This document shows positions 2,686 to 63,070 of a stretch of 64,000 bases of DNA, piece after piece. Each line of letters begins with the position of its first letter. Position 1 is the stretch's first letter. The notes beneath the pieces are model-generated. The model saw nothing but the letters and a program-made list of their open reading frames with translations, was not told the DNA's origin and searched no databases. This DNA comes from Ginglymostoma cirratum. Taxonomy: Eukaryota. Location of the stretch: the NCBI GenBank assembly GCA_024137785.1, contig JAHRHZ010000271.1:18983986-19047985 (forward strand), read 5' to 3'. The translations under genes and the position numbers were made by a program.

Positions 2686-2712
2686 CTGATGAAGGGCTGT
2701 GCTCTGAAAGCT
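2686..2712 (+). ncRNA. Minimal hammerhead ribozyme-like motif
   Basis: CTGATGA, helix II AGGGC-TGT-GCTCT, GAAA, then GCTT (palindromic AAGCTT as helix III). Confidence 0.55.
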
Positions 2713-2915
2713 TGTGTGATTCCAAATAAACCTGTTGGACTAGAAGTCATGTGACTTCTAAAAAAGTGATTGGAATGGCAGATATAAGGAAATTTTCTGC
2801 ACAGGTGGTTAAAGTTATTATCTGAGCAATTGGCTTAGAGCTCACACTCTTAATTTCTCAAAGAATACTGGATGAAAGTTTTAATTTACTCTTGCTGCTA
2901 CTTTTGTCATTACAG

Positions 2916-3040
2916 ATGAGGCAGAGAGTGACAAAGAGCGAGCCTGTGACACTCTATTGATGTGTATAGTAACAGTATTAAATCATGGTCTACGTAATGG
3001 AGGCGGTGTTGGAGATATACTCAGACAACCGTCGAAAGAT
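2916..3040 (+). CDS. ITPR3: Inositol 1,4,5-trisphosphate receptor type 3, internal exon (pore helix and selectivity filter)
   Basis: tacag|AT GAG...AAA GAT|gtaagt; encodes [41 protein letters not shown], containing the GGGVGD filter; [17 protein letters not shown] fits type 3 given the downstream exons and UQCC2 synteny. Confidence 0.95.
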
Positions 3041-3709
3041 GTAAGTAAATCTTTATAATGAGACACCTCGAAGCATTTGTCTCTCACCTCCACAGTTTCA
3101 ATTTTAAAATCTAGCAGTAAGTAACCATAACTACTCACTGTTTTTATATGTGTGCATGCAGCTTTGCTGAATTTTCCCTTGAAGACGCAGACTCACCAAA
3201 ATAAATTCAATCTTTTAAAATTACTGTTATGTAATTTCCCCACCCAAATATTTTATCAATCCTTTTAAGAAACACCATACTACTGTCCATTCTCATTATC
3301 AAGACTTATGTTCCAGCTTCTAAAGTGTATTACTGTCAATTAAGAACCAGTCACTTCAAACTATTAAAAAGTGACAGGAGATTTAATATTTCATGTTCAG
3401 TTTTCCTGTGTGAATTTGCCTTTCCCATTTTTGGCATTTCATCTAATGGCACAGGTTTTAATTGAAAATAAAAGGAATCTCAAGTAAACCACTATCCTAC
3501 CAATGTGCTGCAGTATCACTCTGTGTGTTCTAACTTATCATCACGGTTAATAGTAACCACATCTTTAAGTTAAGCCAGTGGTGATGAATTACCTTGAAGC
3601 ACATACACATATATTACAGAGTAAGCAAATTGGAAAGGCCTTCTTTCAATGTCTTTAGTACATTTGTTTTTTACATGTTGTCTGACTACCAACAAAAAAG
3701 TGAAAAATT

Positions 3710-4220
3710 TCATAGAGTCCCTACAGTGCACATAGATGCCATTTGGCCCTTCAAGTCTGTACTAACCCTCCAAACAGCATCACACCCTATGCCCATAACC
3801 CATGGTTAGCCCACCTAGCCTCCACATCCCTGAACTTTGGGAGGAAACCAGAGCTCCTGGCAGAAACCTACACAGACAGGAGGAAAATCATAGAATCCCT
3901 ACAGTGTGAAAAAAGGCCATTTGGCCCAATAGGTTCACACCAACCCTCTGAAGAGCATCCCACCCAGACACATACCTCTACCGTTCCCTGTAATTCTGCA
4001 TTTCCCGTGGCTAACATACTTAACCTACACAACCCTGAACACCACAGGCAATTTAGCATGGCCAATTCACCTAGCCTGCACATCTTTGGGCTGTGGGAGG
4101 AAACCAGAGCACCCAGAGGATGCCCACACAGAATGGGGAGAATGTACAGAATCCGACAGACAGTCACCCAAGGATGGGATTGAACCTGAGGTCCTGGTAC
4201 TGTGAGGTAGCAGTACTAAC
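3710..4220 (-). mobile_element. HE1-like tRNA-derived V-SINE plus an adjacent partial copy
   Basis: Reverse complement gives TGGCTCAGTGGTTAG (A box), GGTTCAATCCC (B box), V-domain TGCTCTGGTTTCCTCCCACAG...GATGTGCAGG and a CR1-like tail. Confidence 0.85.
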
Positions 4221-5176
4221 CACTGAGCCATCATACTGCCTGAGCAGGGTAGTTAACTTTTTTTGACAACCTATGCATAGTACAGAAATAGACCATTCAG
4301 ACCAACAGGCCCTTAATTAACTCACACATCTTCCCATCTATCTTACCCAACCTATAAACATATTCTACTCATTTCTCCCTTTTCCCTTGAATGCATTTTT
4401 GCAATTTGCATTAGCTAAATGCTGTTGTAGTCAGTTCAACATTCAAAACTCTCTGGTGTCAACATTTTTCCAGAATTCCTGGTTGATTTCTTGGTGACTA
4501 TATTTTACTTACAGCCACAAGTTCTGGTCTTGCACACGTTGAAATAACTTCTACCTGATTTACCTTATCAATCCCTTTCACAATCTTGAACGTCTATCTC
4601 TCTTATATGTCCCATTTTGGAGGAAAAAATAGGTCATTCTACTAATTTTCCCCTTCAAGGCCTCTGTAAGCCTTTTTATAAGGAAACCAGAACTGTTCGC
4701 AGTATTCTGAATGTAACCTAACCAAGGGTTTATACAATTTTAACATAAGTTAAAACATAACACAAGATAGTGAGCTGGGAAACAGAATCACAGCTGGAGA
4801 TTGAGATGAAAATCTGGATAAAATAATTTATTTCAAACAACATGAACAAAATAAGGTAGAAATTAACTAAGAACTACCCACATTATAAGAAAAGAAAGTT
4901 AAAGATATAAAGAGGAGTAAACGGGAGAACATTAGTTTAGCACATACAGGTCTCACAAAAGCCTTGGCTTGCTTGTTTCAGAGGGAAATTTTTCATGTAT
5001 TAAATAATAAGCATTGACCGTCAAAAGACCGTCAAAAGAAATATAGAATTCTCCTTAACATGGTGTCTGAAAATTATTATTTATACATTTCAAGTTAGTT
5101 CAGATTATTTTGCAGAAGCATAAGGATATTGAACTTGAAGACTAAATGTAATTCTACAATGATTGATGTATTCCAG

Positions 5177-5342
5177 GAAGCTCTCTTTCCTGCTCGTGTT
5201 ATCTTTGATCTGCTATTTTTCTTCATTGTCATCATTATTGTGTTGAACCTGATTTTTGGTGTTATCATTGACACCTTCGCTGATTTGAGAAGTGAGAAAC
5301 AAAAGAAAGAAGAAGTCCTGAAATCAACCTGTTTTATCTGTG
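5177..5342 (+). CDS. ITPR3: ITPR3 exon (TM6 and start of linker)
   Basis: ccag|GAA...TGT G|gtaag; [55 protein letters not shown]; phase matches both neighbours. Confidence 0.97.
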
Positions 5343-5649
5343 GTAAGTGCTGATATCTGATACTTGTTCACCAGATGAATAAAAACAGCTCATGAAATGT
5401 CTGCTGCAATAATTACATTTTCAGATTGAAAATAATAGATCAATCTGGTTCAGTACTATTTTGTATGTTGGAAGAAACCGGTAATGTTACTTTAACTAAT
5501 CATCTCACAGCCTCCTAAGACGCTGTGTGGAGAAATTAAGTGCCTCTTGCATCACATCTTAGTGGGTAGCTGACGTGATATGTTCGATGGCCTAAGACCC
5601 ATGTACAAAATCGCACTTCAGTATATCCCTCACCCTTGCTTAGGTCAAA

Positions 5650-5940
5650 AATAGGGGACATATTTTTAAGGTGAGAGGAGAAAGTTTTAAGAAGAACATG
5701 AGGAACAACTTTTTTACAGAGAGAGTGGTTTATGTGTGAACTGAACTGCTAGAGGAAGTGGTGATGCAGGTATATTTACAACATTTAAAAGATATTTGGA
5801 TAATTACATGAATAGGAAAGATTAAGAGGGATATGGGTCAAATGCAGGCAATTGGGTTGAGTTTAGTTTGGGAATGTAGTCACCGTGGACTAGTTGGACC
5901 GTAAGTTCTGTTTCCGTGCTGTATAACTCAATGGCTGTAT
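5650..5940 (+). mobile_element. CR1 LINE 3' fragment
   Basis: Similar to the 3' ends of the long CR1 copies at ~45720-46010 and ~39100-39400. Confidence 0.75.
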
Positions 5941-5944
5941 TGTT

Positions 5945-7240
5945 GTGCTTCAGTGGTGGATGAGGTACCGATCAAGGAGGCTGCTTTGTTCTGGATGGTG
6001 TCAAACTTGATTGTTTTTGGAGCTGTACCTACTTTTGCAAGTGCAGAGTATGCAATCACACTCCTGACTTGTGCTTTTTAGATGGTGGACAGACCATAGA
6101 GAAGCTGGAGGTGAGTTACTCACCGCACCTCACCACACAGTTTCTGACCTTGACCAGCTTTTGTAGCACAGTATTTATGTGGTTGGTCCAGTTCAGTTTC
6201 TGGTCAGTCGTAGCTTCCAGAGTGTTGATAATGGGGGATTCAGCGATGGCAATGCTATTGAATGTCAAGGGCACATATCCCTCTTGTTTGAAATGATCAT
6301 TGCCTGGCACTCATGTGACACAAATTTTACTTGTCACTTATCAGCTCAAACCTGTATATTGTCCAAATCTCACTGCTTATGCACACAAGCTACTTCGGTA
6401 CCTGAGGAGGTACAAATTATGCTGAATGTTGTACAAACATGAGGAAACATACCCACTCCTGACTGTATGATGGAGAGAAAGTCATTCGTGAAGCAGTTGA
6501 AGATGGTTGGGCTCGGACACTACTCCGGAGAATTTCTGCAGAGATGTCCTGGAACTGAGTAAGGTTGACCTCCAACGATCACAACCATTTTCATTTGTAC
6601 AGTGGAGACCTTTCCCCATAATTCACATTGACTTCAGTTTTGCTAGGGCTCCTTGATACCACACTCAATCAAATGCTTCTTGATGTCAAGGACAGTCACT
6701 TGTTTACGAGCAAGTGTTCTTTGAATGCACTGTCAAACAACCCTGCCCATAACTTGGCTGATGAACAAGAGTAGGTTGATTGGGTGGTAAGTAACCTTGT
6801 TGGATTTGTCCTGCTATTTGTGGACAGGGCATACCGGGACAATTTTTTCACATACCAGACAGATGCCAGTGTTGTAACTGCACTGGAACTGCTTGGGTAT
6901 GGGTGTGTCTATGGGTCACAGATTGTCAGAGCCCATAATTAGTATCTTCAGCTTTTCTTGATATTATGTGGAATGAATGGAATAGTTTGAAGACTGCTAG
7001 CTGTTGTGTGGGGCATCTAAGGAGGAAGCTGAGATAGATCATCCACTCGGCACTTCTGGCTGAAGATGGTTAAAAATTCTTCAGCTTTATCTTTTGCACT
7101 GTCATCACTAAGGATAGGAATATTTGTGCAGCGTTCTCTACTCATTAAACATTCACCACCATTCAAGATTGGATGTGGCAGGACTTTAGAGTTTTGATCT
7201 GATCCATCGATTATGGGATCACACAGTTCTAAGTGGCATT
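5945..7240 (-). mobile_element. Old CR1-clade LINE fragment (second family)
   Basis: Minus-strand peptide INTLEATTDQKLNWTNHINTV; similar to 25850-27360 (+). Confidence 0.65.
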
Positions 7241-7367
7241 CAGGAAATGCTGTAGCCTATGTTTGATCTTATGCCATGAGAGTTTAATTGTTCCAGCATT
7301 AATGTTGAGCATTTCCAGGGTCACTCCCTCCCAACTGCAGGTTTCTTTTTTTTTTCTTTTTTATTGC

Positions 7368-7461
7368 TTTTCTGAAGCAGGGTCTAGACCCGGAACGTCA
7401 GCTTTCCTGCTCCTCTGATGCTGCTTGGCCTGGTGTGTTCATCCAGCTCTACACCTTGTTA
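7368..7461 (+). mobile_element. PLE-terminus short element with degenerate hammerhead
   Basis: CTGAAGCAGGGTCTAGACCCGGAACGTC followed by the family body GCTTTCCTGCTCCTCTGATGCTGCTTGGCC. Confidence 0.8.
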
Positions 7462-7515
7462 GCCTACATCCAACACCTCAAGTAGCTTTTAAATTCAATG
7501 AAAAACAAAAACAAA

Positions 7516-7636
7516 CTACAAATGTTGTAAATGTGAAACAAAAACAGGAAGTGCTGGAGAAACTCGGCAGGTCTGGTAACATCTGTAGAAAGAAAAATAG
7601 AGTTAACGTTTCGAGTTCAGTGACCCTTTCTTAGAC
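7516..7636 (-). mobile_element. PLE-terminus short element (related subfamily), degenerate hammerhead
   Basis: Reverse complement CTAAGAAAGGGTCACTGAACTCGAAACGTTAAC; similar to 52160-52295. Confidence 0.65.
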
Positions 7637-7639
7637 TTG

Positions 7640-9195
7640 GAGGCAGTAAGGACTGCAGATGCTGGAAGCTAGAGTGGAGCTAAATGTGGAGCTGGAAAAG
7701 CACAACAGTTCAGACAGCATCCGAGGAGCAGCAAAGTCAATGTTTCGGGCTGAAACCCTTTGTCAGGGCTGGGGAGGGGGAGGGGTGCTGAGAAATAAAT
7801 TGAGGGAGGGGATTGGGGCTATGGGGAGGGGGATGCAGGTAGGGGTTATTGTGGTTCGTCAATGTAAAGGGTGGAGCAGCTAGGTGAACAGAAAGATGGA
7901 CAGAGTGGGGGAGGAGAGATTTTGAAGCTGGTGAAGTCAATATTCGGGCCATTGGGCTGTAAACTCCCAAGGCAAAATATGTGTTGTTGTTCCTCTAGTT
8001 AGTCCCCTTCCACCAACGCTCGCATTTATTTGGCAGAACTGGTCCTCACTCTCAGCAGTTCTTCCTTTGATTCCTCCCACTTCCTACAAAATAAAGGGGT
8101 AGCTACGGGTGCCCATGTAGACCCAAGCTATGCCTGCCTGTTTGTAAGATTTGTGGAACAGTCCCTCTTTAACAACTATACCGGCACCATCCCCCGCCTC
8201 TTTCTCTGCTACGTTGATGACTGTATCGGTACTGCCTCGTGCTCCCACAAGGAACTCAAACGTTTCATCAACTTCGCTAACACCTTTCACCGCAGCCTCA
8301 GATTCACCTGGATCATTTCTGACACCTCCCTCCCCTTCCTGGACCTCTCCCTCTCCATCTCTGGGAACCGACTCACCACTGACGTCCATTTCAAATTCAC
8401 TGACTCCCACAATTACCTTGACTACACCTCCTCTCATCCACCCTCCTGCAAAAATTCTGTCTCATACTCACAATTCCTCCACCTCTGCTGCATCTATTCC
8501 CAGGATGAGGCATTCTACTCTAGGTCTTTCCAGATATCCTCCTACTTTAGAAATCGTAATTTCTCCTCCTCTGTTAATAAGGATGCCCTCAACCGCATCT
8601 CCACCATTTCCCGTGCTTCTGCCCTCAAACCCTCTCCTCCCCAACAGCAAGGATAGAGTCCCCTTAGTCCACCCCACCAACCTCCAAATACAACACATCC
8701 TCCTCTGACATTTCTGCCACCTAAAATCAGACACCACCATCAAAAAGATATTTCCCTCCCCACCCCTATTCACGTTCCACAGGGTTCATGCACACCACGT
8801 CTCTGTCATCAGGTCCATGATCCCCACCAACACCTCCACTACACTCAGTACCTTTCCCTGCAACTGCAGAAGATGCTACATCTGCCCCTACACCTTCCCT
8901 TTCGCCTCCATCCAAGGCCCCAAAGAGTCCTTTCAAATCTGACAGAGATTAATGCACTTCATCTGATCTCATCTACTGTATACGTTGCTCTCAATGTGGT
9001 CCCCTCTATATGGGGAGACCAAACGCAGACTTGGCGACTGGTTTACGGAGCACCTGCGCTCTGCATGCACCATCCAACCTGACCTTCTGATTTCAGTTCC
9101 CTGGTGACATGCCCATCATTGGCCTCCTCCATTGTCAGAGTGGGGCCAAAGTAAACTGAAGGAACAACACCTCATATTTTGCTTTGGGATCTTAA
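7640..9195 (+). mobile_element. Penelope-like element: RT/GIY-YIG body on + (~8000-9195) preceded by an inverted copy of its 3' end (~7640-7998)
   Basis: ORF 8030-8656 has QNKGVATGAHVDPSYACLFV...CYVDDCIG...LPFLDL; YCIRCSQCGPLYxGETKRRL near 8975-9030; the upstream minus segment encodes LEEQQHIFCLGSLQPNGPNIDFTSFKI and then a hammerhead remnant at ~7738-7766. Confidence 0.9.
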
Positions 9196-11080: not shown

Positions 11081-11214
11081 GCTTTAGTAACACTACCCCA
11101 CTTTTATACTCCATTTCCTTTGAAATAAAGGCCAATGCTCCATTTTCCTTCCCTTTTACCTGCTGAAGTTGGCTGCTAGCTAGTTAGTTATCTATTTCGT
11201 TCTGACAAAATTCC

Positions 11215-15322: not shown

Positions 15323-16491
15323 TGTAATGGCAGCCAAAATTCACTGTGGTTACAGTAAAGACCACATCTTTTGATTTTATTTTGTTTGTGGACTAAAGCG
15401 GGAAAAGAACTGTTTTAAAAGGAATCACTGAGGAAGGAATTGCTACACTTCTGAAAACATGCTACTAGAACTCATGGAGAGTTGTTTATACTGCTGCTTT
15501 GCAAGTGGTGGGAGGAAGGTATGACCACACGGTGTGGGACAGTGAATGCAGTGAAATTCAGCTGGTAACAGAGTGCTGGTTTGTGCAAATAATGCCAGAT
15601 GTCATCAGCCTGACAACTCTCCCATTGGTTCCTGGGCACCCGAACAACTTCTGTTTGGGAATGATAGGGGGTTGGGAGGGGGGTGCGTTGCAGAAGGTTT
15701 TCAGACATTAAATTTCTCTAAATTTCTGCAGCAAAATAATACAAGCCTGAAGATAGTTATATGCTTCCACTGCTTGCTGTCAGCTATTGCACCAAACCAA
15801 TGATTATTAAACTGAACAATTAATGTGAAAATCTGGACTCTTCAGCAAATCTGGAAGAACTTTGGAGAACAGAATGTCTTGAAGCAGAAGGAATACCTTA
15901 TTGAAGGGATAGTATGAACTGCGGATGCTGGAGAATCTGAGATAACAAGGTGTAGAGTTGGATGAACACAGCAGGCCAAGCAGCATCAGAGGAGCAGGAA
16001 AGCTGATGTTTCAGGTCTAGATCCTTCAAGCCTTGAAGGGTCTAGACCAGAAACGTCAAGCTTTCCTGCTCCTCTGATGCTGCCTGGTCTGCTGTGTTCA
16101 TCCAGCTCTACACCTTGTTACCTTATTGAAGACTTTAGTCTGGTGCAATTGAGTTGTGCTTCCTTTGTTTTTACTCCCTCCACCCATAAACAACTAAAAC
16201 ATTGCTGTTATCAGTCAATGTGAGAGAAGGGGTTTTAATAGGGTATTGGAGTTTCAAATAATAGTTATGCATTGCTAGTTCGTAGTTGTTTACATGTGGT
16301 TAAATCTATTTATTTGTAATAGCTGTTCTTGTTCAGTACAGAAACTTGATTAGTGTTTTATGTTAAACTGAATTTATCAGATGGCTAAATTGGGGATTTT
16401 GTGTACTCTGTTTAAATCTTTTAACTTCCTTGACGAGCCCAGGGTTAGTGGGGTTCAAACACCAGTGTAGCTTACCAAGTTGGTGGCAACA
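15323..16491 (+). mobile_element. Possible solo LTR
   Basis: TGTAAT...GCAACA termini; no clean TSD; hosts the fold-back insertion at 15907-16120. Confidence 0.3.
15907..16120. mobile_element. PLE-derived fold-back insertion with 13-bp TSD
   Basis: Inverted arms ~15943-16030 and 16032-16120; TACCTTATTGAAG at 15894-15906 and 16119-16131. Confidence 0.9.
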
Positions 16492-17129: not shown

Positions 17130-20100
17130 TTGAGGGGCACAGACAGATGTTTCTGTAGCTATTATAGAGACTTCAGGATGGTGTGTTGACTCCCTGATGC
17201 CAATGTCGAGCATGTCTCTCAGCAGTTGCATGAAATTCTTAAGAGGAAGGATAAGCAGCCAGCGGTCAGAGTACACATTGGTACCAACGAAATAGGTGGG
17301 AAAAAGGATGAGGTCCTGAAGATTATAAGGAGTTAGGCAGAAGGCTAAAATGCAGGAATCTCAAGGGTGGTAATTTCTGGACTACTAGGAGGTTTTGGTG
17401 GATGAATGTATGGCTTGAGAGCTGGTGCAGGGGGTGGGGATTCAGATTCTTGGATCATTGGGATCTCTTGGGTAAAGGGGACCTGCACAACAAGAATAGG
17501 TCGCACCTGAACTGGAGGGAGAGCAATATCCTGGTGGGGAGTTTGCTCGAGCTACTCAAGGGAGGTGGTGGGGGGTGGAATTTGGGATTCAAACAGCAGG
17601 GAGATGAAACAGAAGATTAATAACAGTGCAGAAGTTAATGAGAGCAAGTAGTAAATGCAGTGTTGGTAATCCGAGTAGGGGCAGACAGCAGGAAGCAAGG
17701 GAAGTGTGAGTTAAACTGCATTTATTTCAATGCAAGAGGCCTGATAAGTAAGGCAAATAAACTCAGGGCATGATGGGTACATGGGATTGGGAAATTAAAG
17801 ATATTCCAGAAACATGGCTGAGGGAGGGACAAGACTGGCAGCTCATTGTTCCAGGATACAGATGCCATAGGAAGGATAGAAGGATAGAAGAGGTGGGAGG
17901 ACAGGAGGGGGAGTTGTATTTTGATTGAGAACATCAGGGCTGTACTGAGAAGGGATATTCTCGAGGGTTCGTCCACTGGTTCAATATGGGTAGAACTGAA
18001 AACAAAAAAGGGGAGATCACTTCAATAGAATAGTATTATAGGCCCCCCAATAGTTAGCAGAAGATTGAGGAGCAAATATGTAAGGAGATCACAGGTAGCT
18101 GCAAGAATAATAAGGTTGTAACAGTGGGGGATTTTAACCTTCCTAACGTTGATTGGGACTGCCTTAGTGTTAAGGGCTTGGATGGAATGAATTTGTTAAG
18201 TGTGTTCAGGAAGCATTTCTCATGCAGTATGTAGATGGCCCTACTAAAGAGGCAAAACTTTACCTCTTCTTGGGAAATAAGGTAGAGCAAGTGACGGAGG
18301 TGTTAGTGGGAGAGCACTTTGGTATCAGTGAGTACAATTCCATTAGTTTTAAAATAGCTATGGAAAAGGATAGGTCCAGTCCACAAGTTAAAAAAGTTCT
18401 CAATTGGGGCAAGGCCAATTTTGGTGGACAGGAACTTTCATAAGTTAACTGGGGGAGGCTGTTTGCAGGCAAAGGAACATCTGGTAAGTGGGAGGCTTTC
18501 CAAAGTGAGTTAATGAGGGTTCAGGGCACATTCATATTAGACTGAAGAGTAAGGCTGGCAGGAGTAGGCGACCCTGGATAACTTGAGTTATTGAGGCCTT
18601 GGTCAAGAAAAAGGATTCATACAATCTATATAGACAGCTGGGATCAAGTCAATTCCTTTAGGAGTATAGAGGGTGTCGGAGTTCACTTGAGAGTGAAATC
18701 AGGACACCTAAAAGGGGGAACAAGATGTCATCAGCATATAAGGTAAATAAGAATCCAAAGAGATTCTACAAGTACATGAAGGTCAAAATAATATCTAGGG
18801 AGAGAATAGGACTTCTTAATGATCAACAGGATCATCTATGTGCAGAGCAACAAGAGATGGATGAGATCCTAAATGAATATTTCTCGTCAGTATCCAACAT
18901 CAAGAAAAGTATGGATGCTAGGGAACTTGGGGAAATAAATAGTGATGTCTTGAAGGGAATCCACAAAACAGAAGACGTTGTGCTGAAAGTCTTAAAATAC
19001 GTTCAGGTAGATAAATTCCTGGGACCTGATGTGGCACGTTTCAGGACTTTGTGGCAGGCGAGGGAGGAAATTGCAGGGTTCCTAGTGGAGATATTTACAT
19101 CACTGACAGCCCCTGGGTTAAGTGCTGGAAGATTGGATGGTCACCAATGTTGTACCATTATTTAAGAAAGGCTGCAGGAAAATGCCTGGGAACTACAGAC
19201 TGGTGAGCCTAATTTCTGTGGTGGGTAAGTTGTTAGAGGTGATTCTGAGACACAGGATCTACAGACATTTGGAGAGGCAAGGACTCATTTTGGATAGCCG
19301 GATTGGCTTTATGCATGGGAAATCATTCTCACAAATTTGATTAAGTTTTCTGAAGAGGTGACCAAGAAAGTAGATGAGGGCATTGTCCACAAGAACTTTA
19401 GCCAGGCCTTTGACAAGTTATCGCTTGGTAGGTTAAGTCTCACACGATCCAGTTGGATACAAAACTGACTTGAAGGTGGAAGACTGAGGGTGGAGGTACA
19501 GGGTTGTTTTTCAAACTGGAGGCCTGTAACCAGTAGCGTGCCACAGGGATCAGTGCTGGCTCCAATGTTATTTGTCATTTATATAAATAACTTGGATAAG
19601 AATTTAGGAGGTATGGTAAAGTTAATTTGCGGTTGACACCAAAATTGGTGGTATTGAGGACAGTGAAGAAGGTTATTTGGGAAGACAGTGAGATCTTGAT
19701 CAACTGGGTCAGTGTGTGTGGGAATGGCAGATGGAGTTTAATTTAGATAAATGTGAGGTGTTGCATTTTGCTCGGTCAATCCAGGGCAGGATTTACAGTC
19801 AACAGTAGGGCCATGGCGAGTATTATCGAACAGGGAGATCTGGAGGTACAGGTATATGGCTCCTTGACAGTGACAACGCAGGTAGACAGGGTGGCGAAGG
19901 CAGCCTTCGGCATACGTGGGAGTTGGGACATCATGTTGCAACTGTACAAGACATTGGTAAGGTGACATTTGGAGTCCTGCGAGCAGTTCTGGTCACCCTA
20001 CTATAGAAAGGATATTAGTAAATTAGAAAGAGTGCAGAAAAGATTTACTAGGATGCTACCTGGACTGGAAGGTTCGAGTTATAAGGAGAGTGTGGACAGG

Positions 20101-20715
20101 CTGGGACCTTTCTCCCCTGAAGCATAGGAGACTGAGGGGTGACCTTCTGGAGATCTATAAAATGATGAGAGGCATGGACAAGATAGATAGCCAACAGCTC
20201 TTCCCATGGTAGGGGAGTCTAATACTAGAGAGCATAGGTTTAAAATGACAAGGAGAAACACAAGGGTCCATTTCTGATGAAGGGTCTAAGCCCGAAACAT
20301 CGAGCTTTCCTGCTCCTATGATGCTGCTTGGCCTGCTGTGCTCATCCAGCTCCACACCCTGTTATCTCGGAGCATTTCTGATGAAGGGTCTAGGCCCGAA
20401 ACGTCAAGCTTTCCTGCTCCTATGATGCTGCTTGGCCTGCTGTGTTCATCCAGCTCCACACCTTGTTATCCCGAAGGGAACTCTTTTTCACACAAAAGGT
20501 GGTGACTGGAATAGATTGTTAGAGGCAGTGATGGAGCAGAGTACAATTTTGTCATTTAAGAAACATTTGGAAGGCACATCGATGGAATAGGTATGAAGGG
20601 ATATGGACAAAAAGCAGGCAAATGGGACTAGTTTAATTGTGAAAACTAGATGGCAGAGCCAAGTTGGGCCAAAGGGTTTGTTTCCATGTTGCAAACCTCT
20701 ATGGCTCTATGTATG
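17130..20715 (+). mobile_element. CR1 (HER1-like) LINE, long decayed copy: ORF1 esterase, APE endonuclease, RT
   Basis: GWGFRFLDHWDL...HLNWRESNIL (ORF1 SGNH-like), GDFNLP, NPKRFYKY, EDWMVTNVVPLFKKG...PGNYRLVSL, VPQGSVL; many stops. Confidence 0.92.
20269..20470 (+). ncRNA. Head-to-tail dimer of a 104-bp PLE-terminus unit, each unit with a minimal hammerhead core
   Basis: CTGATGAAGGGTCTAAGCCCGAAACATC (20274-20301) and CTGATGAAGGGTCTAGGCCCGAAACGTC (20378-20405); inserted in the CR1 3' region. Confidence 0.8.
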
Positions 20716-30899: not shown

Positions 30900-31300
30900 C
30901 CACAATACAGGACTTGACAGGGCAAGACGTGGAAAGAGATAACACAGTGTGAAGCTGGAGGAGCACAGCAGGCCAGGCAGCATCAGAGAAGCAGGAAAAG
31001 ACGTGGAAAGGTTGTTTCTTCTTGCGGGAGAATTAAGGGGTCGCACATTTAAGACAGATTAGGGGCAATTCTCTCCGGGGGTTTTAAATCCATGGAATTT
31101 TTTTTAACCAGAGAATTGCTGAGGCTGGATCATTAAATATATTCAAGGCTGAGAGATGTTTTAATTAGTAAGCGAATCAGGAGTTGTGTAAATGGGAAGT
31201 AAGTGATGTTGATAATTATCAGTTCATCCATGATCTCAATGAATGATGGTGCTCAATGGGCTGAATGGCCTACTTCTGTTCCTATGTCTTATGGTCTTAT
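30900..31300 (+). mobile_element. CR1 3' fragment containing a 61-bp PLE-terminus insertion (30937-30997, minus) with 13-bp TSD
   Basis: AAGACGTGGAAAG at 30924-30936 and 30998-31010 flanks the reverse-complemented family body. Confidence 0.8.
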
Positions 31301-38964: not shown

Positions 38965-39405
38965 TGGTGCTGGATAGGCTGGGACTTCTTTCACTGGAGC
39001 AAAGGAAGTTGACAGGTCACCTGATAGAAGATTATACAATAAGGAGAGGTATAGATAGAGTTATTGGTAGTTGTCTTTTCCTTAGGATGGGCGATTTCAA
39101 GACTAGGCGGCACATTTTTACGGTGAGAGGAGGAGATTTAAAAAAGACACGAGGGACAAATTTTTTTTACACAGCGGGTGGTTCACATGTGGAATGACCT
39201 TCCTGAGGAAGTAGTGGATGTGGGTATAATCACAATGTTTAAAAGACATTTGGATAGATACGTGAATAGAAAAGGATTGGAAGGACATGGGCCAGGAGTA
39301 GGTAGGTGGGACACATTTAGTTTGGGATTATGTTGGGCATGGACTGGTTGTACCGAAGCATCTGTTTCTATGCTGTATGACTCTATGACTCTATGATTAT
39401 GACTC
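38965..39405 (+). mobile_element. CR1 3' fragment
   Basis: LDRLGLLSLEQRKLTGHLIEDYTI...; (TATGACTC)n tail. Confidence 0.85.
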
Positions 39406-41899: not shown

Positions 41900-44800
41900 A
41901 TTGAAACTCTTTTTTGTTTAGGCTTAATGTCGTTAATAGCATGTATGAGGTACAGAGTGAGATGGCTGATAGAGTTAGAAAAGTTATTACCCAGCAGGAT
42001 CAGTCAGATAGATGGGTGACTGTTGGGAAAGGTAAGAAGGTAGTTCAAAAGTCTCTGGTGGCTATTCCTCTATCAAAAAGGTATTCAGTTTTTGGAGCTC
42101 TAGAAGGTGATAGACTGTCCGAGGAAAATTGAAGAACCAGTCAGTTATTGAACACTTAGAATAATTCTTATGTTAGGCAGCGTTTGACAAGATTTAATAG
42201 AATTATTGTTATGGGGAGTCTCCTGTCAGAGGCATAGGAGATTCTATGGCAGTGACCGTAAATTTAGGATGGCTTGTTGCTTTCCTGGTGCTAGGATTAA
42301 GGACGTCTCTAAACATTTCAAGTATATTGTGAAAGGTGAAATTGAGAAGCCAGAAATTATTGAACACATTGGTGGGAATGACATTTTTAGGGAAAAGATT
42401 AAGGCAGTACGCAGTGAATTTAAGATGTTAGTGAGAAGATTAAAAAGTAGTAATTCCTGGTTTACTCCCAATGCCAAACTCAAGCAAGGGAAGGAACAAA
42501 AGGATACAAGAGTTAAATCAATGGATGAAGATCTGGTATGTTGTTCAGGGATTCAGGTTTTTGGACAACTGGAATGTCTTTTGGGATAGAAAAAAACCTG
42601 ATCAAAAACATGGGCCTAACCTAAACTGGAAAGAGACCAACATCTTAGCTGGGTGATTTGCTCATTCCATGAAGGGAGACTTTATACAGATAGGGAGGGG
42701 GAGTGGAGGAATTCTCAGTCGCAGTGTAAGTAGAAAGATTGATGGGGAACGTTCTGAGTGTGAGGAGAGAACGTTGCATTTATTTCAATGCAAGGCGTCT
42801 TGCAGGTAAGGCTGATGAAGTCAGGGCATGTTCAAGAACATAGGATTGGCACGTCATGGCTATTACGGAAACTTGACTGAGAGATGGACAAGACTGGCAG
42901 CTCAATGTTCCAGGTTTTAGATGCTATCAGAAGGATAGAAAAGGGAGCAAGAAAGGAGGGGCAGATGAGTTTGATTATGGAATATATTACTGCTGTAACT
43001 AGGGAAGATATTTCTGAAAGATCATCCAGTGAAAATATGAGTAGAAATAACAAATAAACAAAGAAAAATCACTTTGTTGGGATTGTACTATATCTCCCCA
43101 CCCCCCCAATAGTAAGAGGGAAATTGATAAACAAATGTATAGTGAGATATCAGATATATGTAAGCATAATAAGATTGTAATAATGGGGGATTTTAATTGT
43201 CCAAACATTGATTGGGGCTATCAAAGTTTTTAAGGCTTGAATGGTGAAGAATTTTTCAAATGTGTTCAAGAAAATTTACTTTATCAATATGTGGATGGTC
43301 CTACTAGCGAAGGAGGAAAACTAGACCTTCTTTTGGGCGAGGGGCAGGGTGGGGGTGACTGGTGTAAAAGTAGGAGAACACTTGGGTTCTAGCGATCATA
43401 ATTCTATTCGTTTCAAAATGGTTATAGAAGAGGACAAGCCTTCCATAAAAGTCAAAGATTTTAACTGGAGTAAGGCAAATTTTAATGTTATGAGACAAGA
43501 ACTTTCAAAAGTTTATTGCAGTAGACTGTTCACAGGTAATAGAACAACTGAGAAGTGGGAGGCATTCAAGAGCGTGATGACAAGAGTTCAGAGGCATTAT
43601 GTTCCTGTTAGAGTGAAGGGTAAGGCTGGTAAGATTAAGGAACAATGGATAAATAAAGATATTGAGGTTCTAGTCAAGAATGAGAGAATCTTATTTTTGA
43701 TATAGACAACTTGGTTCAATTGAACCTCTTAAACAATATAAAAGAGTGCAGGGGCATTCTTAAGAGAGAAATCAGGAAGGCAAAGAAAGGATATGAGATA
43801 ACATTGGCAGATAAGGCTAAGGATAATCCAAAAAGTTTCTACAAATACATTAAGAGCAACAGGGTAACTAGAGAGAAGGTAGGACCTCTTAAAGATCAAA
43901 GAGGTCATTATGTTGAACCCCAGGAGATGGGAGCGATACTAAATGAACATTTCTCGTCAGTTTCTACTGTGGAGAAAGAAATGGAGCCCAGAGAAGGAAG
44001 AGAAATACATTTTGATGTTTTAAAAACAGTTAATATTACAGAAGAGGAAGTTTGGGAGGTCTTAGAGAATACAAAGGTGGCTAAATCTCCAAGACCTAAT
44101 CTAATGTATTCTAGAACATTGTGCAAAGTAAGGAATAAAATTACGTGATCCCTTGCAGAAATATTTGCATCATCTATAACTATGGGTGAGGTGCCTGATG
44201 ACAGGAGGGTGGCTAATGTTGTATCTTTGTTTAAGAAAGGGTGTGAGGAGAAAATGGGGATCTATAGACCTGCCAGTCTGACTTCGGCTGTGGGTAAATT
44301 GTTGGACATGATTATAAAAGGTAGGATTTATAGACCTTTAGAGAGGCAAGCATTGATTAGGAATAGTCAGCAATGGCTTTGTGTAAGGAAAATCATTTCT
44401 CACAAACTTGACTGAGTTTTTTGAGGAAGTTACTAAAAAGAAGGATCGATGATTGCAGAGCAGTAGACGTTGATTATTTGGATTTTAGTAAAGCCTTTGA
44501 CAAGGTTCTGTGTGGTAGGCTAATTAGTAAAGTTGGGTCACATGGGATTCAGTGTAAGTTTGCCAATTGGATACATAATTGGCTTAACGGCAGGAAACAG
44601 AAAGTAATGGTGGAGGGTTGCTATTCAGACTAGGGGCCTGTGACCAGTGGTGTTCCACAGGGATCAGTTCTGGGACCTCTTTTGTTGTCATTTGTATAAA
44701 TGATTTGGATGACAATATAGAAGGCATGGTTAGTAAATTTGCAGACAACACCAAATTGATGGCATAGTAGACAGTGAAGAAGGTTTTCTAAGATTACAAA

Positions 44801-46010
44801 GGAATCTTGATCAAATGGGTGCATTGGCTGAAAAATGGCCGATGGAGTTCAATTTAGATAAATGCAAGGTATTGCATTTTGGTACAACAAACAAGGGTAG
44901 GGCTTATTTCTTTTTTATTCATTCATGGGATGAGGGCATCACTGGCTAGGCAGCATTTATTGCCCAGAGGGCAGTTCAGAGTCAACCACATTGCTGTGGG
45001 TCTGGAGTCACATGTCGGCCAAACCAGTTAAGGATGGCAGTTTTCTTCCCTAAAGGACATTAGTGAAGGACGTTAGATGGGTTCTTCTGACAATCGACAA
45101 TGGATTCGTGGTCATCATTAGATTCTTAATTCCAGGTATTTTGTTGAATTCAAATTCCACTATCTGTCATGGCAGGATTCAAACCTGGGCCACCAGAACA
45201 TTATCTGGGTCTCTGAATTAACAGTCCAGCGATAATATGACTAGGCCATCACCTCCCCTATACAATTAATGGTAGGACCTTGTGAAATGTTGTAGAACAG
45301 AGGGACCTAAGGATGCAGGTGCATAATTCTTTTAAGTTTGCATCACACATAGACATGTTGATTAAAAAGCATTTGGCACGCTTGCTTTCATTGCTCAGTC
45401 CTTTGAGTGTAGGACTTGAGAAATCATGGTGAGGTTGTACAGAACATTGGTGAGGGCTCTTCTGGAATACTGTGTCCATTTCTGGCCTCCCATTTATCGG
45501 AAGGGTATTATTAAGCTGGAGATGGTTCAGAAGAGATTTACCAGGATGTTGGCAGATATGGAAGGTTTGAGTTATTCAGAAAGGCTGGATAGACTGGGAC
45601 ATCTTTCCACTGGAGCAAAGGAGGTTGCGAGGCGACCTGGTAGAAGTTTATAAAATCATGAGGGGTATAGATTGAATTAATGGTAGTTGTCTTTTCCCTA
45701 GGATGGGAGATTTCAAGACTAGGGGCACAGTTTTAAGGTGAGAGGAGAGAGATTTAAAAAAGACATGAAAGGCAAATGTTTTACACAGAAGGTGGTTCGC
45801 ATGTGGAATGACCTTTCTGAGTAAGTGGTGGATGTGGGTATAATTAAAATGTTTTAAAGACATCTGGATAATTACATGAATAGGAAAGGTTTCTAGAGAT
45901 ATAGGTCAGGAGCAGGCAGGTGGGACTAGTTTAGTTTGGGATTATTTTGGGCATAGATTGATTGGACCGAAGTGTCTGTTTCTGTACTGTAAGACTCTAT
46001 GACTCTCAAA
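41900..46010 (+). mobile_element. Near full-length decayed CR1 LINE (ORF1 esterase, APE endonuclease, RT, 3' tail)
   Basis: CCFPGARIKDV...HIGGND, GFRFLDNW, HLGSSDHNSIRF, NPKSFYKYI, YLDFSKAFDKV, GVPQGSVLGP, KFADNTK, YRTLVRALLEYC; GACTCTAT tail. Confidence 0.93.
44908..45258 (-). mobile_element. tRNA-derived SINE inserted in the CR1
   Basis: Minus strand begins GGGGAGGTGATGGCCTAGT (A box) with GGTTTGAATCC (B box) and ends GGGCAATAAATGCTG...CATGAATGAATAAAAAA, a tail shared with the old LINE family in this window; the CR1 sequence resumes after it. Confidence 0.8.
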
Positions 46011-50427: not shown

Positions 50428-50718
50428 TAAGGTTTTGGAGTAGATTTGTAGCTTGGGTTGCGGATGTTGAGGTTGGTTGGCTTGCTGAGCTGGTTTGTTG
50501 TTGTTCTGCAGACGTTTCATTACCCTGCGGGTAACATTATCAGTGCAGCCTTTGATGAAGCACCATTGTGTTTTCCCGCCTGGATTTTTAAAAAACCAGG
50601 CGGGAAAACACACCGGGACTTCATCGGAGGCTGCACTGATGATGTTACCCAGCAGGGTAATGAAACATCTGCGGAACAACAACAAACCAGCTCAGTGAGC
50701 TAACCAACCTCAAAAGGC
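50428..50718. mobile_element. PLE-derived fold-back insertion carrying a hammerhead motif in each arm
   Basis: Arms ~50467-50589 and ~50590-50713; cores at 50511-50543 (-) and 50636-50669 (+); CATATGCTT at 50419-50427 and 50719-50727. Confidence 0.88.
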
Positions 50719-52131: not shown

Positions 52132-52159
52132 ATTAAAATGTGACCCTAAGATTAAGAAC

Positions 52160-52295
52160 GTAAATAAACAAAGAAATGTGGATGCCAAAAATCTAGAATG
52201 AAAACAGTGTGCTGGCAAAACACAATAGGTCTGTCAGCATATGTGGAGAAATAAGAGAGTTAACATTTAGAGTCCAGTGACCCTTCATCAGAACA
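52160..52295 (-). mobile_element. PLE-terminus short element with degenerate hammerhead
   Basis: Reverse complement CTGATGAAGGGTCACTGGACTCTAAATGTTAAC. Confidence 0.65.
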
Positions 52296-53023
52296 TTATG
52301 AATGGACTGGCTCAGCCACAGACCATCAACAGGCAAATGGATGGAGATGCTGTCTAGGGAATGGGGTTTGAGACAGGCTGCAAAGACAATAGCTTTGCAA
52401 TTCTGAATATTGTGTCAGGAAAATTTCTACACATCCCATTATGGATATCAACAAGCAATCTGATAGTTTTGGAGATGGTGGACTGATCAAGGAAAGTGAT
52501 AGTAATGTGGAGCTGAGTGTCATCAGCAAACATGTGGAAATTGATAATGTGCAGAGAAGTGTGGAGTAGGAGCAGGTAAAGAAGCCACTGCCAGTGATTC
52601 TTTGACATTTGGATTGTTAAATGTGAAACTGGGCAAGTTGTAGACAACCTAACTGAATGAAGTTGTTGACTTGCTCACCAAGCTGGCTAATAATTAGTTA
52701 ATCTAAATCTAATCTAATCTAAATTCTGTCAACCCTTGTCCTGCGCAGAACGAGCATGAGGTTGATCGGCATTGATAAAAAAGTCATGCTGCCTGAGTCA
52801 AACTGCCATCACAAGGAGAAGGGATTGGATTCCAAAACCTGTCTCATAATACAGGAAGTGTGTTGTGATGGGCCGGAGAGACATGCCTTCAGAGGAATAG
52901 AACAAACCAAAGAAAATCACATAACCTCAGTCTCAGCTAAGAACTTTTTCTCAGCTCTCGATTAAAAAAGATAGATATAAGACATTACTTCAAGTTGTAC
53001 AAAACAAATAGGACAAAGGAACA

Positions 53024-53197
53024 CAGCAGGCCAAGCAGCATCATAGGAGCAGGAAAGCTTGACGTTTCGGGCCTAGACCCTTCATCAGAAAAACGTCAAG
53101 CTTTCCTACTCCTATGATGCTGCTTGGCCTGCTTTGTTCATCCAGCCCCACACCTTGTTATCTCGGATTCTCCAGCATCTGCAGTACCTTTCATCTC
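53024..53197. mobile_element. PLE-derived fold-back insertion with 14-bp TSD and intact hammerhead (53061-53088, minus)
   Basis: AGGACAAAGGAACA at 53010-53023 and 53198-53211; inverted arms of the family body. Confidence 0.9.
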
Positions 53198-53299
53198 AGG
53201 ACAAAGGAACAATTGTTCAAACAAGTGAAAGATGACTTTAGGAATAAATGAAGCTCTTTTAGACATTGAGTGATCAACAGATGAAATAGACTTCCAGAT

Positions 53300-53835
53300 A
53301 ACACATTTCGCTTGGGAATCCTGCAGCTCAATGGTCTCACTGTGGACTTCACAAGCTTCAAAATCTCCCCACCCCCAACATCATCCCAAGACCAGCCCAG
53401 CTCATCCCCGCTTCCTTGACCTGTCTGCTCCTCCCACCTGACTGACCAACCCCCACCCTCAACTCCTTCCTACCAGCCTCATCCCTGCCTCCTTGAACTG
53501 TCCGTCTTCCCTCCCACCTAGCCGCCCCTCCCTCCCAACTGACCAACCCCCATCCTAACTCCTACATTCACCTTTACTGGCTCCATCCCCGCCTCCTTGA
53601 CCTGTCCGTCTTCTCTCCACCTATCTGCTCTTCTGTCCACCTTCCATCTTCACCTCCCCCCACTATTTATTTCAGAGTCCCCTTCCCCTGCCCCTTCCCC
53701 ATTTCTGAAGAAGGGTCGAGACCTGAAATGTCAGCTTTCCTGCTCCTCTGATGCTGCTTGGCCTGCTGTGTTCATCCAGCTCTACACTTTGTTTTCTCAG
53801 ACTCCAGCATTGGCAGTTCCTACTATCTCTCAGTA
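53300..53835 (+). mobile_element. PLE 3' end plus terminal repeat with hammerhead (53705-53732)
   Basis: Similar to the reverse complement of 36129-36610; CTGAAGAAGGGTCGAGACCTGAAATGTC. Confidence 0.85.
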
Positions 53836-59590: not shown

Positions 59591-59763
59591 AGTAGGAGCA
59601 AATTACTGCAGATGCTGCAATCTGTACTGAAAATAAAAAAATGCTGGAAATCACAACAGGTCAGAGCTCTGATAAAGAGTTGTCTAGACTTGAAATGTTA
59701 GCTTGCTGTCTCTCCTTGGATGCTGCCTGACCCCCTGTGATGTCCAGCATTTTTGTTTTCAGT
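59591..59763. mobile_element. Older PLE-derived fold-back insertion with degenerate hammerhead
   Basis: Arms 59626-59664 and 59727-59763; CTGATAAAGAGTTGTCTAGACTTGAAATGTT at 59669-59699. Confidence 0.65.
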
Positions 59764-62700
59764 GTTGACTGGTGTACCTTAATGATGGCCCCTTAGGGAG
59801 GAAATAATGTGTGTATAAGTAAGAGACATCTCTCCCTGCCCACATCTGATAACCCTGACCCATTCACCCAAGAGCTTTTGCCAGTCAATATAGATGATTC
59901 TAAAGTCTGGACAACCAAGTGGTTTACAACAATTTCCTTCGAGGTTCTAACATCAGAGGACAGCAAAAGGAAACCTTCCACCTGATGAAACAAGCCTGGA
60001 TGGTCAGCAGATGAAATTAACTGAAATTGCCTAATAAGTCATTCAGCAGTATCAAACTCTCACAGGTTTAAAAAAAAAACACCATGCATGTACACATTAA
60101 TACATCAATTACAATACCTCAAGGCGGTGTTTACCACCACTGTTTTGAGGGCATGCAGGAATAGATAATAAATGTCAGTGATTCCACAGGATACAAATGA
60201 ATAAAAGAGATATGTATGGCATGTAATGTCACTTGTAGTCCCACTGTCAAGTACTAATCGTTACAGCAGAAAATACAAACGCTCAAAGTCAGACATCTAC
60301 GTGCCATGAGTCAAGATTTCAGTTTGATGACCTTTCCAGGTTTTTTTTTAAAAAACAGTCGAGCAGCTTAGTGAGCAGGTGGAAGGCTCAATAAAACAAA
60401 TGGTGTATGACTAAGAGGAGGACACTGGATGATTAAATGGCAGAACTGATAGTTTGACAAAGTGAGGCAATAATGAGAAAAGTTAAAGATGTATTCAAAA
60501 CCCAGAGGACAAGCATTCTCATCAACACCTGAGAGATCAAAATAGGATAAAATCGCTTTGTTCAACACCTCTGTTCCATTTATAACTCAGGCCCAAGTTT
60601 TCAGTTATGTGCTGCTTTGATTCTCTGTCCTATCTCCTCTCTGACCTCTCTGTTCTTGCCTTCTCCATTATTCCATTAAGAGTCAATGCAAGTTCAAGCA
60701 ACAACAGCTCATCTTTTCACTAGCATCTAGCCTTAACTACTTCAGAACTTAACTACAAGTCCCTTTTTTTTTCTTGGATAGTAGGTTCTGGTGATGCCTA
60801 AAATATTCACCAGCAATTCTAGGAAATGGTAGGCGGTTGCTGTTTGTGGATAGAGCTATATGTGTGGTGGGCTAGTCTGCACCCCTGCTGTCACTTGCCT
60901 TTTCTTCTTGTTCTTTCTGATCACTTTGTTAGATTTTCCACACTTCCTTCGTCCTCTGCCGCTCTACTAAGATCAGTTGTATTTCCTCATTGAGTAACCA
61001 CTTTAACTTCTCTTGTTATTGGTGCAACACTCCAGAGATCAGAACCTGCATGCTATTGGGCCAATGGCTGACATTTCCTGAATGCCCATTTAGCACTGTC
61101 AGGGTCCACGGCTGCTGTTGCCTCTTCAATTTACCGGTGACCTTAAAATCATCTCCATGCAAGTCTTCATCCTAACTGTAACTTTTCCCTGTTGTTGGTT
61201 AGAGACAAAATGAAGTTGTAATGGAAATGCCAAAATGGTGAGAAATTACCATTTTCCTTGTTATTTTTCTCTAGTGCTTCTCGTCTGTTGTTACATGACA
61301 AAAAGAAGAAACATGAGAGGAGCATGTGGCCCCAAAATTTCAGCTCAGAGCTTCACTTGAGGTCCTAACTTCCATTTTGGTTTGTGTCTTCCATTTGGTG
61401 TGTGTAGTGGGTCTTTCATTTCTCCTTTGCCTATAAGTGTGTGGGCCAAATACTTTCCCAGGAGTAACAAAGCCATGATCTCTTATGGAATTAGAACAGA
61501 AATTTCGGAATTTCCCCTATAACCTACTTCTGCATTGAGGATGTTAATCTCCCACAAGAGTTTTGCAAATATTATGAATTCTATGTAATTGGTTAATAAT
61601 TGCATTTTACACCACAGTATCAGTGTTGGGACCAGTTAGCAGCTAAAAGTATGACTTTGCTGTAGTCATACTGTTGAGTTTGTTGCAGTGCCCACATGAT
61701 GGAGCTGTTAACTGCTTTTTCTTTTGTGTGAATGTAATTACTGCTGGATAAATTCCCCTGCCAACTGCACATACACTGAACATTAATACAGATCAGCACA
61801 TAAGATTTCCACAAGGGCTTTGCTAAAGCATAATGACATTTAGCTTTTTCTCACAGTAATTGTGGTGCCTGCGTGGAACATAAATGTATCAGAAACATTT
61901 TTGTGAAGGATTCTGATAGTCATTAGTAATGAACCATTAGAACATTAGCAACCAGAAGAATAGCCTGCTCAACCCCTCGAGCTGGCTCTGCCATTTAATT
62001 AAATCATGACTGAAATTCATCTCTACCCACCTTTGTTCCATGTCCCTTGATGCCCTTGCCTAACAAAATATATATCTCTCTCAAGTCTTAAAAGTTCCAA
62101 ATCATTTCCACCATATTCTGGGGTAGAAAGTTCCAGAAGTCTACCTTCCTTTGTGGAGAAATGATGCATTCTGATTTTCCTCCTGATGGCCATGTATCAC
62201 AGTTACTATGCAATATACCTCTAAAAATATGCTCATTATATCATCACAGTAATATTGCATATGAATCAATGGTTGAAAGGCCTCAGTTTCACTCTTACTG
62301 GGGCCATTTGCCTATTAAGACAAAATTCAGGTACAAAGTAAGAGGTCCATCATTGCATCTCTGGCAGATCATCAGACCCTTTACATACTCTGTTCTTCAA
62401 GGCTGAAAACATCCTTGCAAAATCCAAACAATTTAAACAACTAGACTCTTTCCCTCTGCTTGTCTCTGACCATTTTTCCTGTAATGAATTTTTATTTAAC
62501 ATTTGAGTAAGTCTTTATTAAGTAATCTGAATATTTTTTAAAAAAAAAGTCAAAATACATCATACTCGTTTACAATGCATGTAACAAATAAAATATAGTT
62601 TGCCAAGTATTTTGAAAACTATTAAAATTCTTAAAAAATTACTCCATATTAGGAACCCTATGCTGAAACAAGTGATGGGCCCATTAAGAACATTGCATCT

Positions 62701-62974
62701 GGCAAATAACTGCATTCAGTTACAAATTGATCGCCCAACTGATCAAGTTGATGTTTAAATTTTGAACGTGTAGAACTTGGTGGATGAATATTGAAGCATG
62801 TCAGTTTCAGTTTTGCAAGTTTGACGAATGTAAGTGTTATTCTAGACCCTTTGGATATGGTGATTGATTGGTGATGAATGAATCCTGTGGCAAATGTGAA
62901 CAGTTATAATGTTCCACCTTTAAAGTTGTTGTAGCCCATGCACTACTGCATCCATTTCAAGGACCAGTCAGGAT

Positions 62975-63070
62975 CGAAGAAGAGTCTAGGCCCGAAACGT
63001 CAGCCTTCCTGCTCCTCTGATGCTGCTTGGCCTGCTGTGTTCATCCAGCTCTACACTTTGTTATCTCAGG
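62975..63070 (+). mobile_element. PLE-terminus short element, 5'-clipped hammerhead
   Basis: GAAGAAGAGTCTAGGCCCGAAACGTCAGCCTTCCTGCTCCTCTGATGCTGCTTGGCC; TCAGGAT on both sides. Confidence 0.8.

Follow-up and report, generated by a model that had tools for sequence, protein, structure and literature searches.

The 64,000-nucleotide stretch of the Ginglymostoma cirratum genome analyzed here (GenBank assembly GCA_024137785.1, contig JAHRHZ010000271.1, positions 18,983,986 to 19,047,985 of the forward strand; hereafter the window) carries minimal hammerhead ribozyme motifs that we interpret as the hammerhead-bearing ends of the pseudo-long terminal repeats (pseudo-LTRs) of several Penelope-like elements (PLEs). 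Solo copies of about 100 and 135 bp are likely dead-end run-off cDNAs of these elements, a reading to which we give a probability of roughly 0.6. Several points are observed in the sequences: the motifs are linked to PLE coding sequence, the 3' ends form two classes that each head-to-head pair combines, target sites are duplicated, the 5' boundary is sharp, and some full-length elements start at that same boundary.

The original prediction recognized at least three families of such motifs, attributed to PLE pseudo-LTRs, and five sequence families (A-E) have been found. Each is located downstream of PLE coding sequence at one locus at least, in agreement with that attribution; the assignment is firm for family A and weaker, with a single locus each, for families B-E. 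For family A, the 30 best matches of the unit were fetched, plus 20 loci with the start of the open reading frame (ORF). Five of the 30 matches run at least 1.5 kb upstream into a frame with reverse transcriptase (RT) motifs, a linker, and a GIY-YIG endonuclease, and RT motifs and the GIY-YIG endonuclease at the C-terminus share one frame at L022/L092 and other loci, the Pfam GIY-YIG matches in these ORFs (E 0.008 and 0.005) both being below the cut-off. The translations contain a C-X4-C-X2-C linker between RT and endonuclease, and a Cys-rich, Zn-finger-like linker marks the Neptune/Nematis PLEs (PMC8557442). Family A is accordingly classed as the pseudo-LTR of an RT and GIY-YIG PLE with a Neptune/Nematis-type Cys linker, a type judged by sequence features. 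Among the 20 ORF-start loci, 16 carry a direct upstream pseudo-LTR piece of variable 5' extent; since the unit lies both before the ORF start and at the 3' end of the element, it is identified as the pseudo-LTR. For the remaining families, relatives were found 1,285 nt downstream of an RT-like sequence with 31% identity (B, L093), behind a GIY-YIG-like frame read by eye (C, L023), 186 nt after a PLE endonuclease (D, L058), and 230 nt after PLE coding sequence (E, L059).

Positions in family A are given on a ruler on which 0 is the C of the CTGA core and the predicted cut falls between +27 and +28. Upstream of the long ORF, which begins at +167, are two short frames. The ATG of the hammerhead core opens the first of these, with 14 codons (L115, L119, L122, and L130, at the junction of pseudo-LTR and ORF), and is missing from older family A subfamilies. 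The second, of 28-29 codons, is in the same frame as the main ATG and ends 12 codons before it. The N-terminal region of the ORF includes a long, low-complexity Thr/Ala/Pro-rich stretch before the RT (L094:5786-6644).

The ends of the copies were determined in 659,165 bases sampled from the 4.36-Gb assembly as 113 10-kb stretches at round coordinates, 43 of which contributed no bases; this is not a strictly random sample. It holds 114 family A copies, or 0.17 per kb, corresponding to about 7.5 × 10^5 (6.2-9.1 × 10^5) copies genome-wide. Their 3' ends fall into two classes about 36 nt apart, 48 at +89 to +96 and 43 at +125 to +133, which by their positions are identified with the known two-site PLE "tail", i.e., RT-start sites, and not with poly-A or cleavage ends. 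Head-to-head pairs account for 36 of the 114 copies and direct tandems for four. In 17 of the 18 pairs the arms are asymmetric, one ending at or before +98 and the other at or beyond +111 (p = 1.4 × 10^-4), and two pairs in the window are flanked by target-site duplications of 11 and 14 bp. A pseudo-LTR at both ends from partial tandems, inverted 5' copies, and a tail of 30-40 bp on one arm, as in endonuclease-encoding (EN+) PLEs, are likewise present. By analogy, the paired asymmetry and the duplications match PAc, the Poseidon element of Anolis, whose RT has two internal start sites and extends both strands of the target (Frangieh et al. 2024, PMC11167929).

Leaving out 15 5' ends that were masked or at the edge of a stretch, 99 family A ends are distributed as follows: 38 at -6 to +1, one at -8 to -7, none at -20 to -9, 25 further upstream, and 35 at +2 to +65. 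The short unit is thus discrete, as originally proposed, and the ends do not follow the random truncation that would have spoken against it. The boundary lies about 32 nt upstream of the cut site, near which only three of the 99 ends are found (+26 to +30), and the flanks of the short copies are mutually unrelated or are inverted arms. Family D shows the same boundary, with 21 of 53 ends at -5 to -3 relative to a reference that is a single long copy, and two of the 20 full-length family A loci begin exactly with G-ATTTC at -4. A splice acceptor at the boundary, as in Drosophila virilis, was considered and rejected; the element has no AG before -4, and there is no spliced joint among the joints listed.

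The base preceding the boundary is often G, which suggests the end of a capped RNA, although internal-junction controls are not significantly lower. Of the 1,925 non-C bases that stand before ATTTC genome-wide, 968 are G. Several junction counts were made by hand on listed rows: in the first 100 of 1,493 rows, the base before CATTTC is G in 40, A in 16, and T in 44, the T including transitions in long copies, and only 32 G stand before ATTTC in long context, so point mutation explains little of the excess. Verified direct junctions, drawn from 70 loci of the -4 list and 20 G/A loci of the -5 list, give a G:A ratio of 25:9, above base composition (p = 1.4 × 10^-4). An RNA-read joint supported by 50 reads has an untemplated G before -5, and the joint of the tandem in the window (20269-20476) likewise has a G from neither side. 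An untemplated G has been read as a cap signature for L1 (PMC9341517). At L284, L291, and L301, the start of the unit is preceded by an untemplated AG, on whose other side lies the target duplication or upstream PLE sequence. Moreover, the first 7-12 nt of the unit are repeated at the junction at L174, L180, L185, L264, L265, L280, L286, L312, and L313, as would be expected at a physical template end. These bases occur two or more times, as if the RT had re-primed on the template end, recalling telomerase realignment; such repeated-start junctions show no significant excess over controls.

A footprint of cleavage was sought at the cut site. Genome-wide, purine-preceded starts number 482 at +28 and 804 at +32, and since 21 of 30 and eight of 30 inspected starts, respectively, were true junctions, about 340 and 215 junctions are estimated, versus about 1,500 at -4. 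Several of the +28 junctions are snap-backs on the AAGCTT palindrome, leaving at most a small +28 excess that is partly explained by them. A Fisher test on listed rows (p = 4 × 10^-5) was set aside, since its control counts were approximate and internal variants, not junctions, make up most of the +32 rows. The templates would have been mostly uncut, with which a small cleavage-derived class is compatible.

The following mechanism is proposed. Transcription would start at about -5/-4, D. virilis Penelope being an example of an internal promoter (PMC2377424), and the PLE RT would begin at one of two internal sites that lie near the 5' end of the element's RNA, itself uncleaved and probably capped. 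Priming would occur at +92 or +128, one site on each nicked strand, possibly by a dimeric RT-endonuclease if PAc is a guide (PMC11167929). Run-off at the RNA 5' end, 4-5 nt before the hammerhead core, would produce the stub, in which the hammerhead is carried along, uncut in most templates. Long copies would result when priming occurs in the 3' pseudo-LTR or when this is reached by transfer, and the stubs would not be copied again, since the region beyond the start sites, required by PAc, is lacking in them. The boundary probably corresponds to an RNA 5' end. We read it as a physical and putatively capped end, and a capped RNA polymerase II start at the initiator-like CCATTTC, between CC and ATTTC, has about an even chance of being its origin. 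More tentatively, and with the odds clearly against it, the stubs could be the PLE counterpart of retroviral strong-stop DNA: a capped RNA would start on the first bases of hammerhead helix I, and the RT would prime about 100-135 nt downstream, copy the cap as an extra G, and either integrate, giving a stub, or transfer to the identical pseudo-LTR at the RNA 3' end, from where the entire element would be copied. Such transfer might carry the cap-derived G into long copies, but no sign of this was seen in hand counts (G: 32 at -5 and 21 at -8; A: 58 and 25, likewise higher at -5), a weak test that neither supports nor excludes transfer.

Several observations weigh against the run-off reading. 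The G excess at the boundary is not significant against internal junctions (25:9 vs 7:7, p = 0.18), nor with inverted joints included (46:22 vs 13:15, p = 0.07), in an unselected set (11/16 vs 8/22, p = 0.10), or in that set when -3 starts are pooled (12/30 vs 8/22, p = 1). The same G:A ratio is seen in a control at +12 (by hand count, 61:39 among the first 100 of 202), and some junction G are explained by the target duplication (L195) or belong to the repeated ATTTCTG. Families B and C mostly keep upstream sequence (nine and six matches, by eye), so the boundary is not universal. The young subfamily, represented by a 30-mer with 15,688 exact copies genome-wide, keeps ten more upstream bases exactly in 9,607 of them, and most of its copies are therefore long; these exact copies do bear out the earlier suggestion that some of the spread was recent. 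Older subfamilies are richer in short copies, with 28 short and 13 long among the CTGAAG type against 13 and 18 among the young CTGATG type (p = 0.03; 22 unclassified copies and one masked copy were left out), and some non-autonomous amplification could explain this skew. Finally, the RNA evidence consists of one deep, unstranded run; none of the sequence records listed as containing the unit is recorded as RNA. In that run, poly(A) reads cover the unit deeply and equally on both strands, and 86% run into unrelated sequence, which shows passive inclusion of the unit in host transcripts; no pile-up of starts or ends was seen on the unit, at the cut site included, and the run is uninformative on start or cleavage.

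It had been suggested that the ribozyme-bearing terminus spread as a SINE-like (short interspersed element-like) or retrozyme-like family, and a self-propagating family of either kind is not supported. In the SINE-like version, which we regard as unlikely, stubs would be transcribed from an internal promoter and re-mobilized in trans by PLE proteins. This would account for the discrete ends and target-site duplications; the promoter of D. virilis Penelope is internal (PMC2377424), solo pseudo-LTRs are known, and in Adineta pseudo-LTRs suffice for mobilization in trans (PMC3846280). The predominance of short copies in family D and in the older family A subfamilies (28/41 vs 13/31) is a further point in its favor. 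Yet in a tree-ordered alignment of 95 family A copies, judged by inspection without a formal test, short and PLE-attached copies alternate in every subfamily from oldest to youngest; no short-only clade appears in this small sample, and every subfamily step present in stubs recurs among PLE-attached copies. The stubs also end at the RT-start sites, without the downstream region that PAc needs (PMC11167929). A SINE transcribed by RNA polymerase III (Pol III) was rejected, as Rfam matches no Pol III head (tRNA, 5S, or 7SL) and the unit, wholly PLE pseudo-LTR, ends at +92 or +128 without an A-rich or simple-repeat tail. Still less credible is a non-LTR retrozyme, whose tandem hammerhead repeats would self-cleave, circularize, and re-insert. 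While the 104-bp direct dimer at 20269-20476 would nearly satisfy the operational definition of bioRxiv 10.64898/2026.07.22.740005, where retrozymes are also reported from one chondrichthyan, and the roughly 340 purine-preceded cut-site junctions (482 × 21/30) are about 1.5 times the +32 control, tandem arrays of hammerhead units are lacking, with four of 114 copies in direct tandem and one dimer in the window. Nor are the unit ends set by self-cleavage: the 5' ends lie before the core, the few at the cut site are those counted above, and several of the +28 junctions are palindrome snap-backs. The hammerheads are, in addition, minimal, with a helix I of 2-4 bp, and not canonical as in PMC7229834.

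The boundary could instead be a truncation hot spot within a longer RNA, without any RNA end being involved: having unwound the hammerhead, or ahead of a C-rich tract, the RT would stall or be released and add non-templated bases. A C-rich tract does start at -5 in family A, addition of non-templated bases is known from non-LTR RTs (PMC8857657), and the lack of a significant G excess over internal junctions is in line with such a stall. We nevertheless hold it to be improbable, as the drop in ends is one-sided, with none of 99 at -20 to -9, the boundary is the same in family D where the upstream sequence differs, and the repeated copies of the first few bases are consistent with a physical end.

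In the window itself, the original prediction counted about 15 hammerhead motifs and listed 18 positions, and a recognizable core is present at all 18, of which seven are intact and 11 decayed; at the eight minus-strand sites (7605, 7740, 16010, 34371, 36193, 50511, 52262, and 53061) the coordinate refers to the GTC/GTT end. The core is free of mismatches at 2686, 20274, 20378, 34371, 50636, 53061, and 53705, has one mismatch at 7740, 36193, 50511, 52262, and 59669, and has two at 7372, 7605, 16010, 16035, 35492, and 62975, 35492 being the weakest. The cores at 20378, 34371, and 53061 are indeed identical over 28 nt each. A strict descriptor requiring the core, a helix II of at least 4 bp, and paired 15.2-16.2 matches five times in the window; 100 dinucleotide shuffles gave 0.01 matches on average and never more than 1. 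The motifs of the described "dense population" are real, but their local density is not raised: the window holds 12 family A copies where the sample predicts 11 per 64 kb, and local enrichment was rejected. The other families are represented by B (2686 and a decayed palindrome at 35437-35572), C (50467-50713), D (7541-7634 and 52201-52291), and E (59669). Physical links to a GIY-YIG C-terminus had been proposed at two places. The one at 36129-36900 holds, as 36517-36897 on the minus strand has 90% identity to the endonuclease end of a PLE ORF (Pfam GIY-YIG E 0.0046, below the curated cut-off), while that at 53300-53835 is limited to the last ~25 endonuclease codons (53306-53380). The individual features are as follows.

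2686-2760, plus strand: family B pseudo-LTR end with intact minimal core (core scan; L093 relative).
7369-7461, plus strand: family A short copy (-3 to about +90), older CTGAAG type, decayed core.
7541-7634, minus strand: family D pseudo-LTR copy, decayed core.
7645-7998, minus strand: old family A-like PLE 3' end with hammerhead (7740-7766), 3' untranslated region (UTR), and last ~30 endonuclease codons (7906-7998).
8003-9194, plus strand: inverted fragment running from RT to endonuclease, same PLE type, facing 7645-7998 head-to-head (tblastn E 1e-91, 67%/40% identity; blastn).
15905-16120, both strands: head-to-head family A stubs, minus arm +4 to +128 and plus arm +4 to +90, with the 11-bp target-site duplication (15896-15906 / 16121-16131).
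20269-20476, plus strand: direct tandem of two 104-bp family A stubs, joint G templated by neither neighbor, second core intact.
30938-30998, minus strand: family A stub truncated past the hammerhead (+32 to +92), absent from the original prediction.
34306-34403, minus strand: G-preceded family A short copy (-5 to +92) with intact core, on the same strand as UQCC2 and ~190 bp upstream of its start codon.
35437-35572, both strands: decayed palindromic pair, family B-related, core barely recognizable.
36130-36899, minus strand: 5'-truncated family A PLE (-679 to +90) with GIY-YIG C-terminus (36517-36897), 3' UTR, and one-mismatch hammerhead.
50467-50713, both strands: head-to-head family C pseudo-LTR pair with 7-bp helix II (L023 relative).
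52201-52291, minus strand: family D short copy, one core mismatch (L058 relative).
53019-53197, both strands: head-to-head family A pair, minus arm -3 to +69 with intact core and plus arm +21 to +127, with the 14-bp target-site duplication (53010-53023 / 53198-53211).
53302-53830, plus strand: 3' end of an older family A PLE (-390 to +128), retaining the last endonuclease codons, the tail, and an intact core at 53705.
59626-59763, plus strand: family E pseudo-LTR copy, core at 59669 with one mismatch, short inverted partner (L059 relative).
62974-63073, plus strand: family A stub (+2 to +99), truncated core.

The features of PLE minimal hammerheads are all recognized, namely the conserved core, a bulged nucleotide before helix II, G10.1-C11.1, and palindromic 15.2-16.2. 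Helix I has 2-4 bp, its 5' strand being exactly the few bases left by the 5' boundary, and helix II has 4-5 bp in family A and 7 bp in family C. Helix II is kept in each of families A-E with a different sequence in each. Within family A, no two-sided compensatory change was found in 17 distinct hand-picked rows, many of them from the pairing-requiring descriptor, the covariation score is not above shuffles (273/500), and subfamilies differ at N7, in loop II, and at a U-G/U-A pair. In the sample, 29 of the 37 strict matches belong to family A, which has 114 copies, so most family A copies fail the descriptor; genome-wide, about 2.4 × 10^5 strict motifs are estimated. An Rfam search of the window returned no hammerhead match, only sub-threshold miRNA matches on inverted pairs, and Rfam is without a model for these minimal forms. 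As for activity, published minimal PLE hammerheads cleave weakly, as dimers (PMC4209133), that of PAc cleaves only with protein (PMC11167929), and eight of nine Xenopus hammerhead dimers were without cleavage (bioRxiv 10.64898/2026.07.22.740005).

Comparison with known systems shows that the catalog is of a described kind and that its useful part is the insertion record. The minimal hammerheads of metazoan PLE pseudo-LTRs (Cervera and De la Peña 2014, PMC4209133) have the same CUGANGA, bulged nucleotide, helix II, GAAA, palindromic 15.2-16.2, and short helix I, and as here their genomes contain thousands of dispersed solo motifs in several families, attributed to truncated PLEs. The copy number is far higher in G. 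cirratum, with the strict motifs estimated above set against 4,000-9,000 in coelacanth and Xenopus, although the descriptors differ, and the fixed 5' boundary does not feature in the parts of PMC4209133 consulted. Neptune/Nematis-type EN+ PLEs (Craig et al. 2021, PMC8557442) share the order of RT and GIY-YIG, the Cys-rich linker, 5' truncation, partial tandems, an inverted 5' copy, and, at only one end, a tail of 30-40 bp, whereas here a large share of insertions is pseudo-LTR alone, with the clade judged by features. PAc has the same two internal RT-start sites setting the tail and extension of both target strands; uncleaved RNA is its main substrate and no RNA-seq ends lie at the cut site, as here (PMC11167929). 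Its ORF starts in the hammerhead, while here the core ATG opens only the 14-codon frame and the long ORF lies beyond both RT-start sites. Non-LTR retrozymes (PMC7229834; bioRxiv 10.64898/2026.07.22.740005) are likewise non-coding, with a type I hammerhead related to PLE pseudo-LTRs, but are defined by tandem arrays giving circular RNA, in contrast to these solo or head-to-head copies with ends at PLE RT sites.

What the PLE hammerhead does has been stated as unclear (PMC8557442), and how PLEs rebuild the pseudo-LTR as open (PMC2377424). The copies with mappable ends suggest mostly uncut templates and an exact position, -5/-4, for the RNA start. If true, the strong-stop reading would provide the mechanism that is still lacking for how the pseudo-LTR is regenerated, and a single genome would preserve hundreds of thousands of its intermediates as fossils. 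A literature search by title and start of abstract, with most subscription papers outside it, found no fixed 5' boundary or cap-derived G for PLE stubs and no cap or run-off reading of them.

Within 1.8 kb, at 7369-9194, three PLE ends are found together (A, D, and the old A-like end with its inverted RT fragment), the D copy having inserted at the tail end of the old A-like element; the cluster may reflect insertion into existing pseudo-LTRs. The first coding exon of UQCC2 lies at 33980-34117 on the minus strand (Pfam UQCC2_CBP6, E 3e-10), in a CpG island, and from its position the intact stub at 34306-34403 could touch the promoter or 5' UTR of this gene. Just downstream of this exon, 32868-33912 contains pyrimidine-rich tandem duplications and CCCGA(A) repeats. 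Another abundant repeat, presumably the 3' end of a CR1/L2-type long interspersed element, occurs in fragments at 5645-5938, 17779-20184, 34753-35292, 38989-39392, and 42838-46006. An RT fragment is also present at 502-894 (Pfam RVT_1, E 3e-5).

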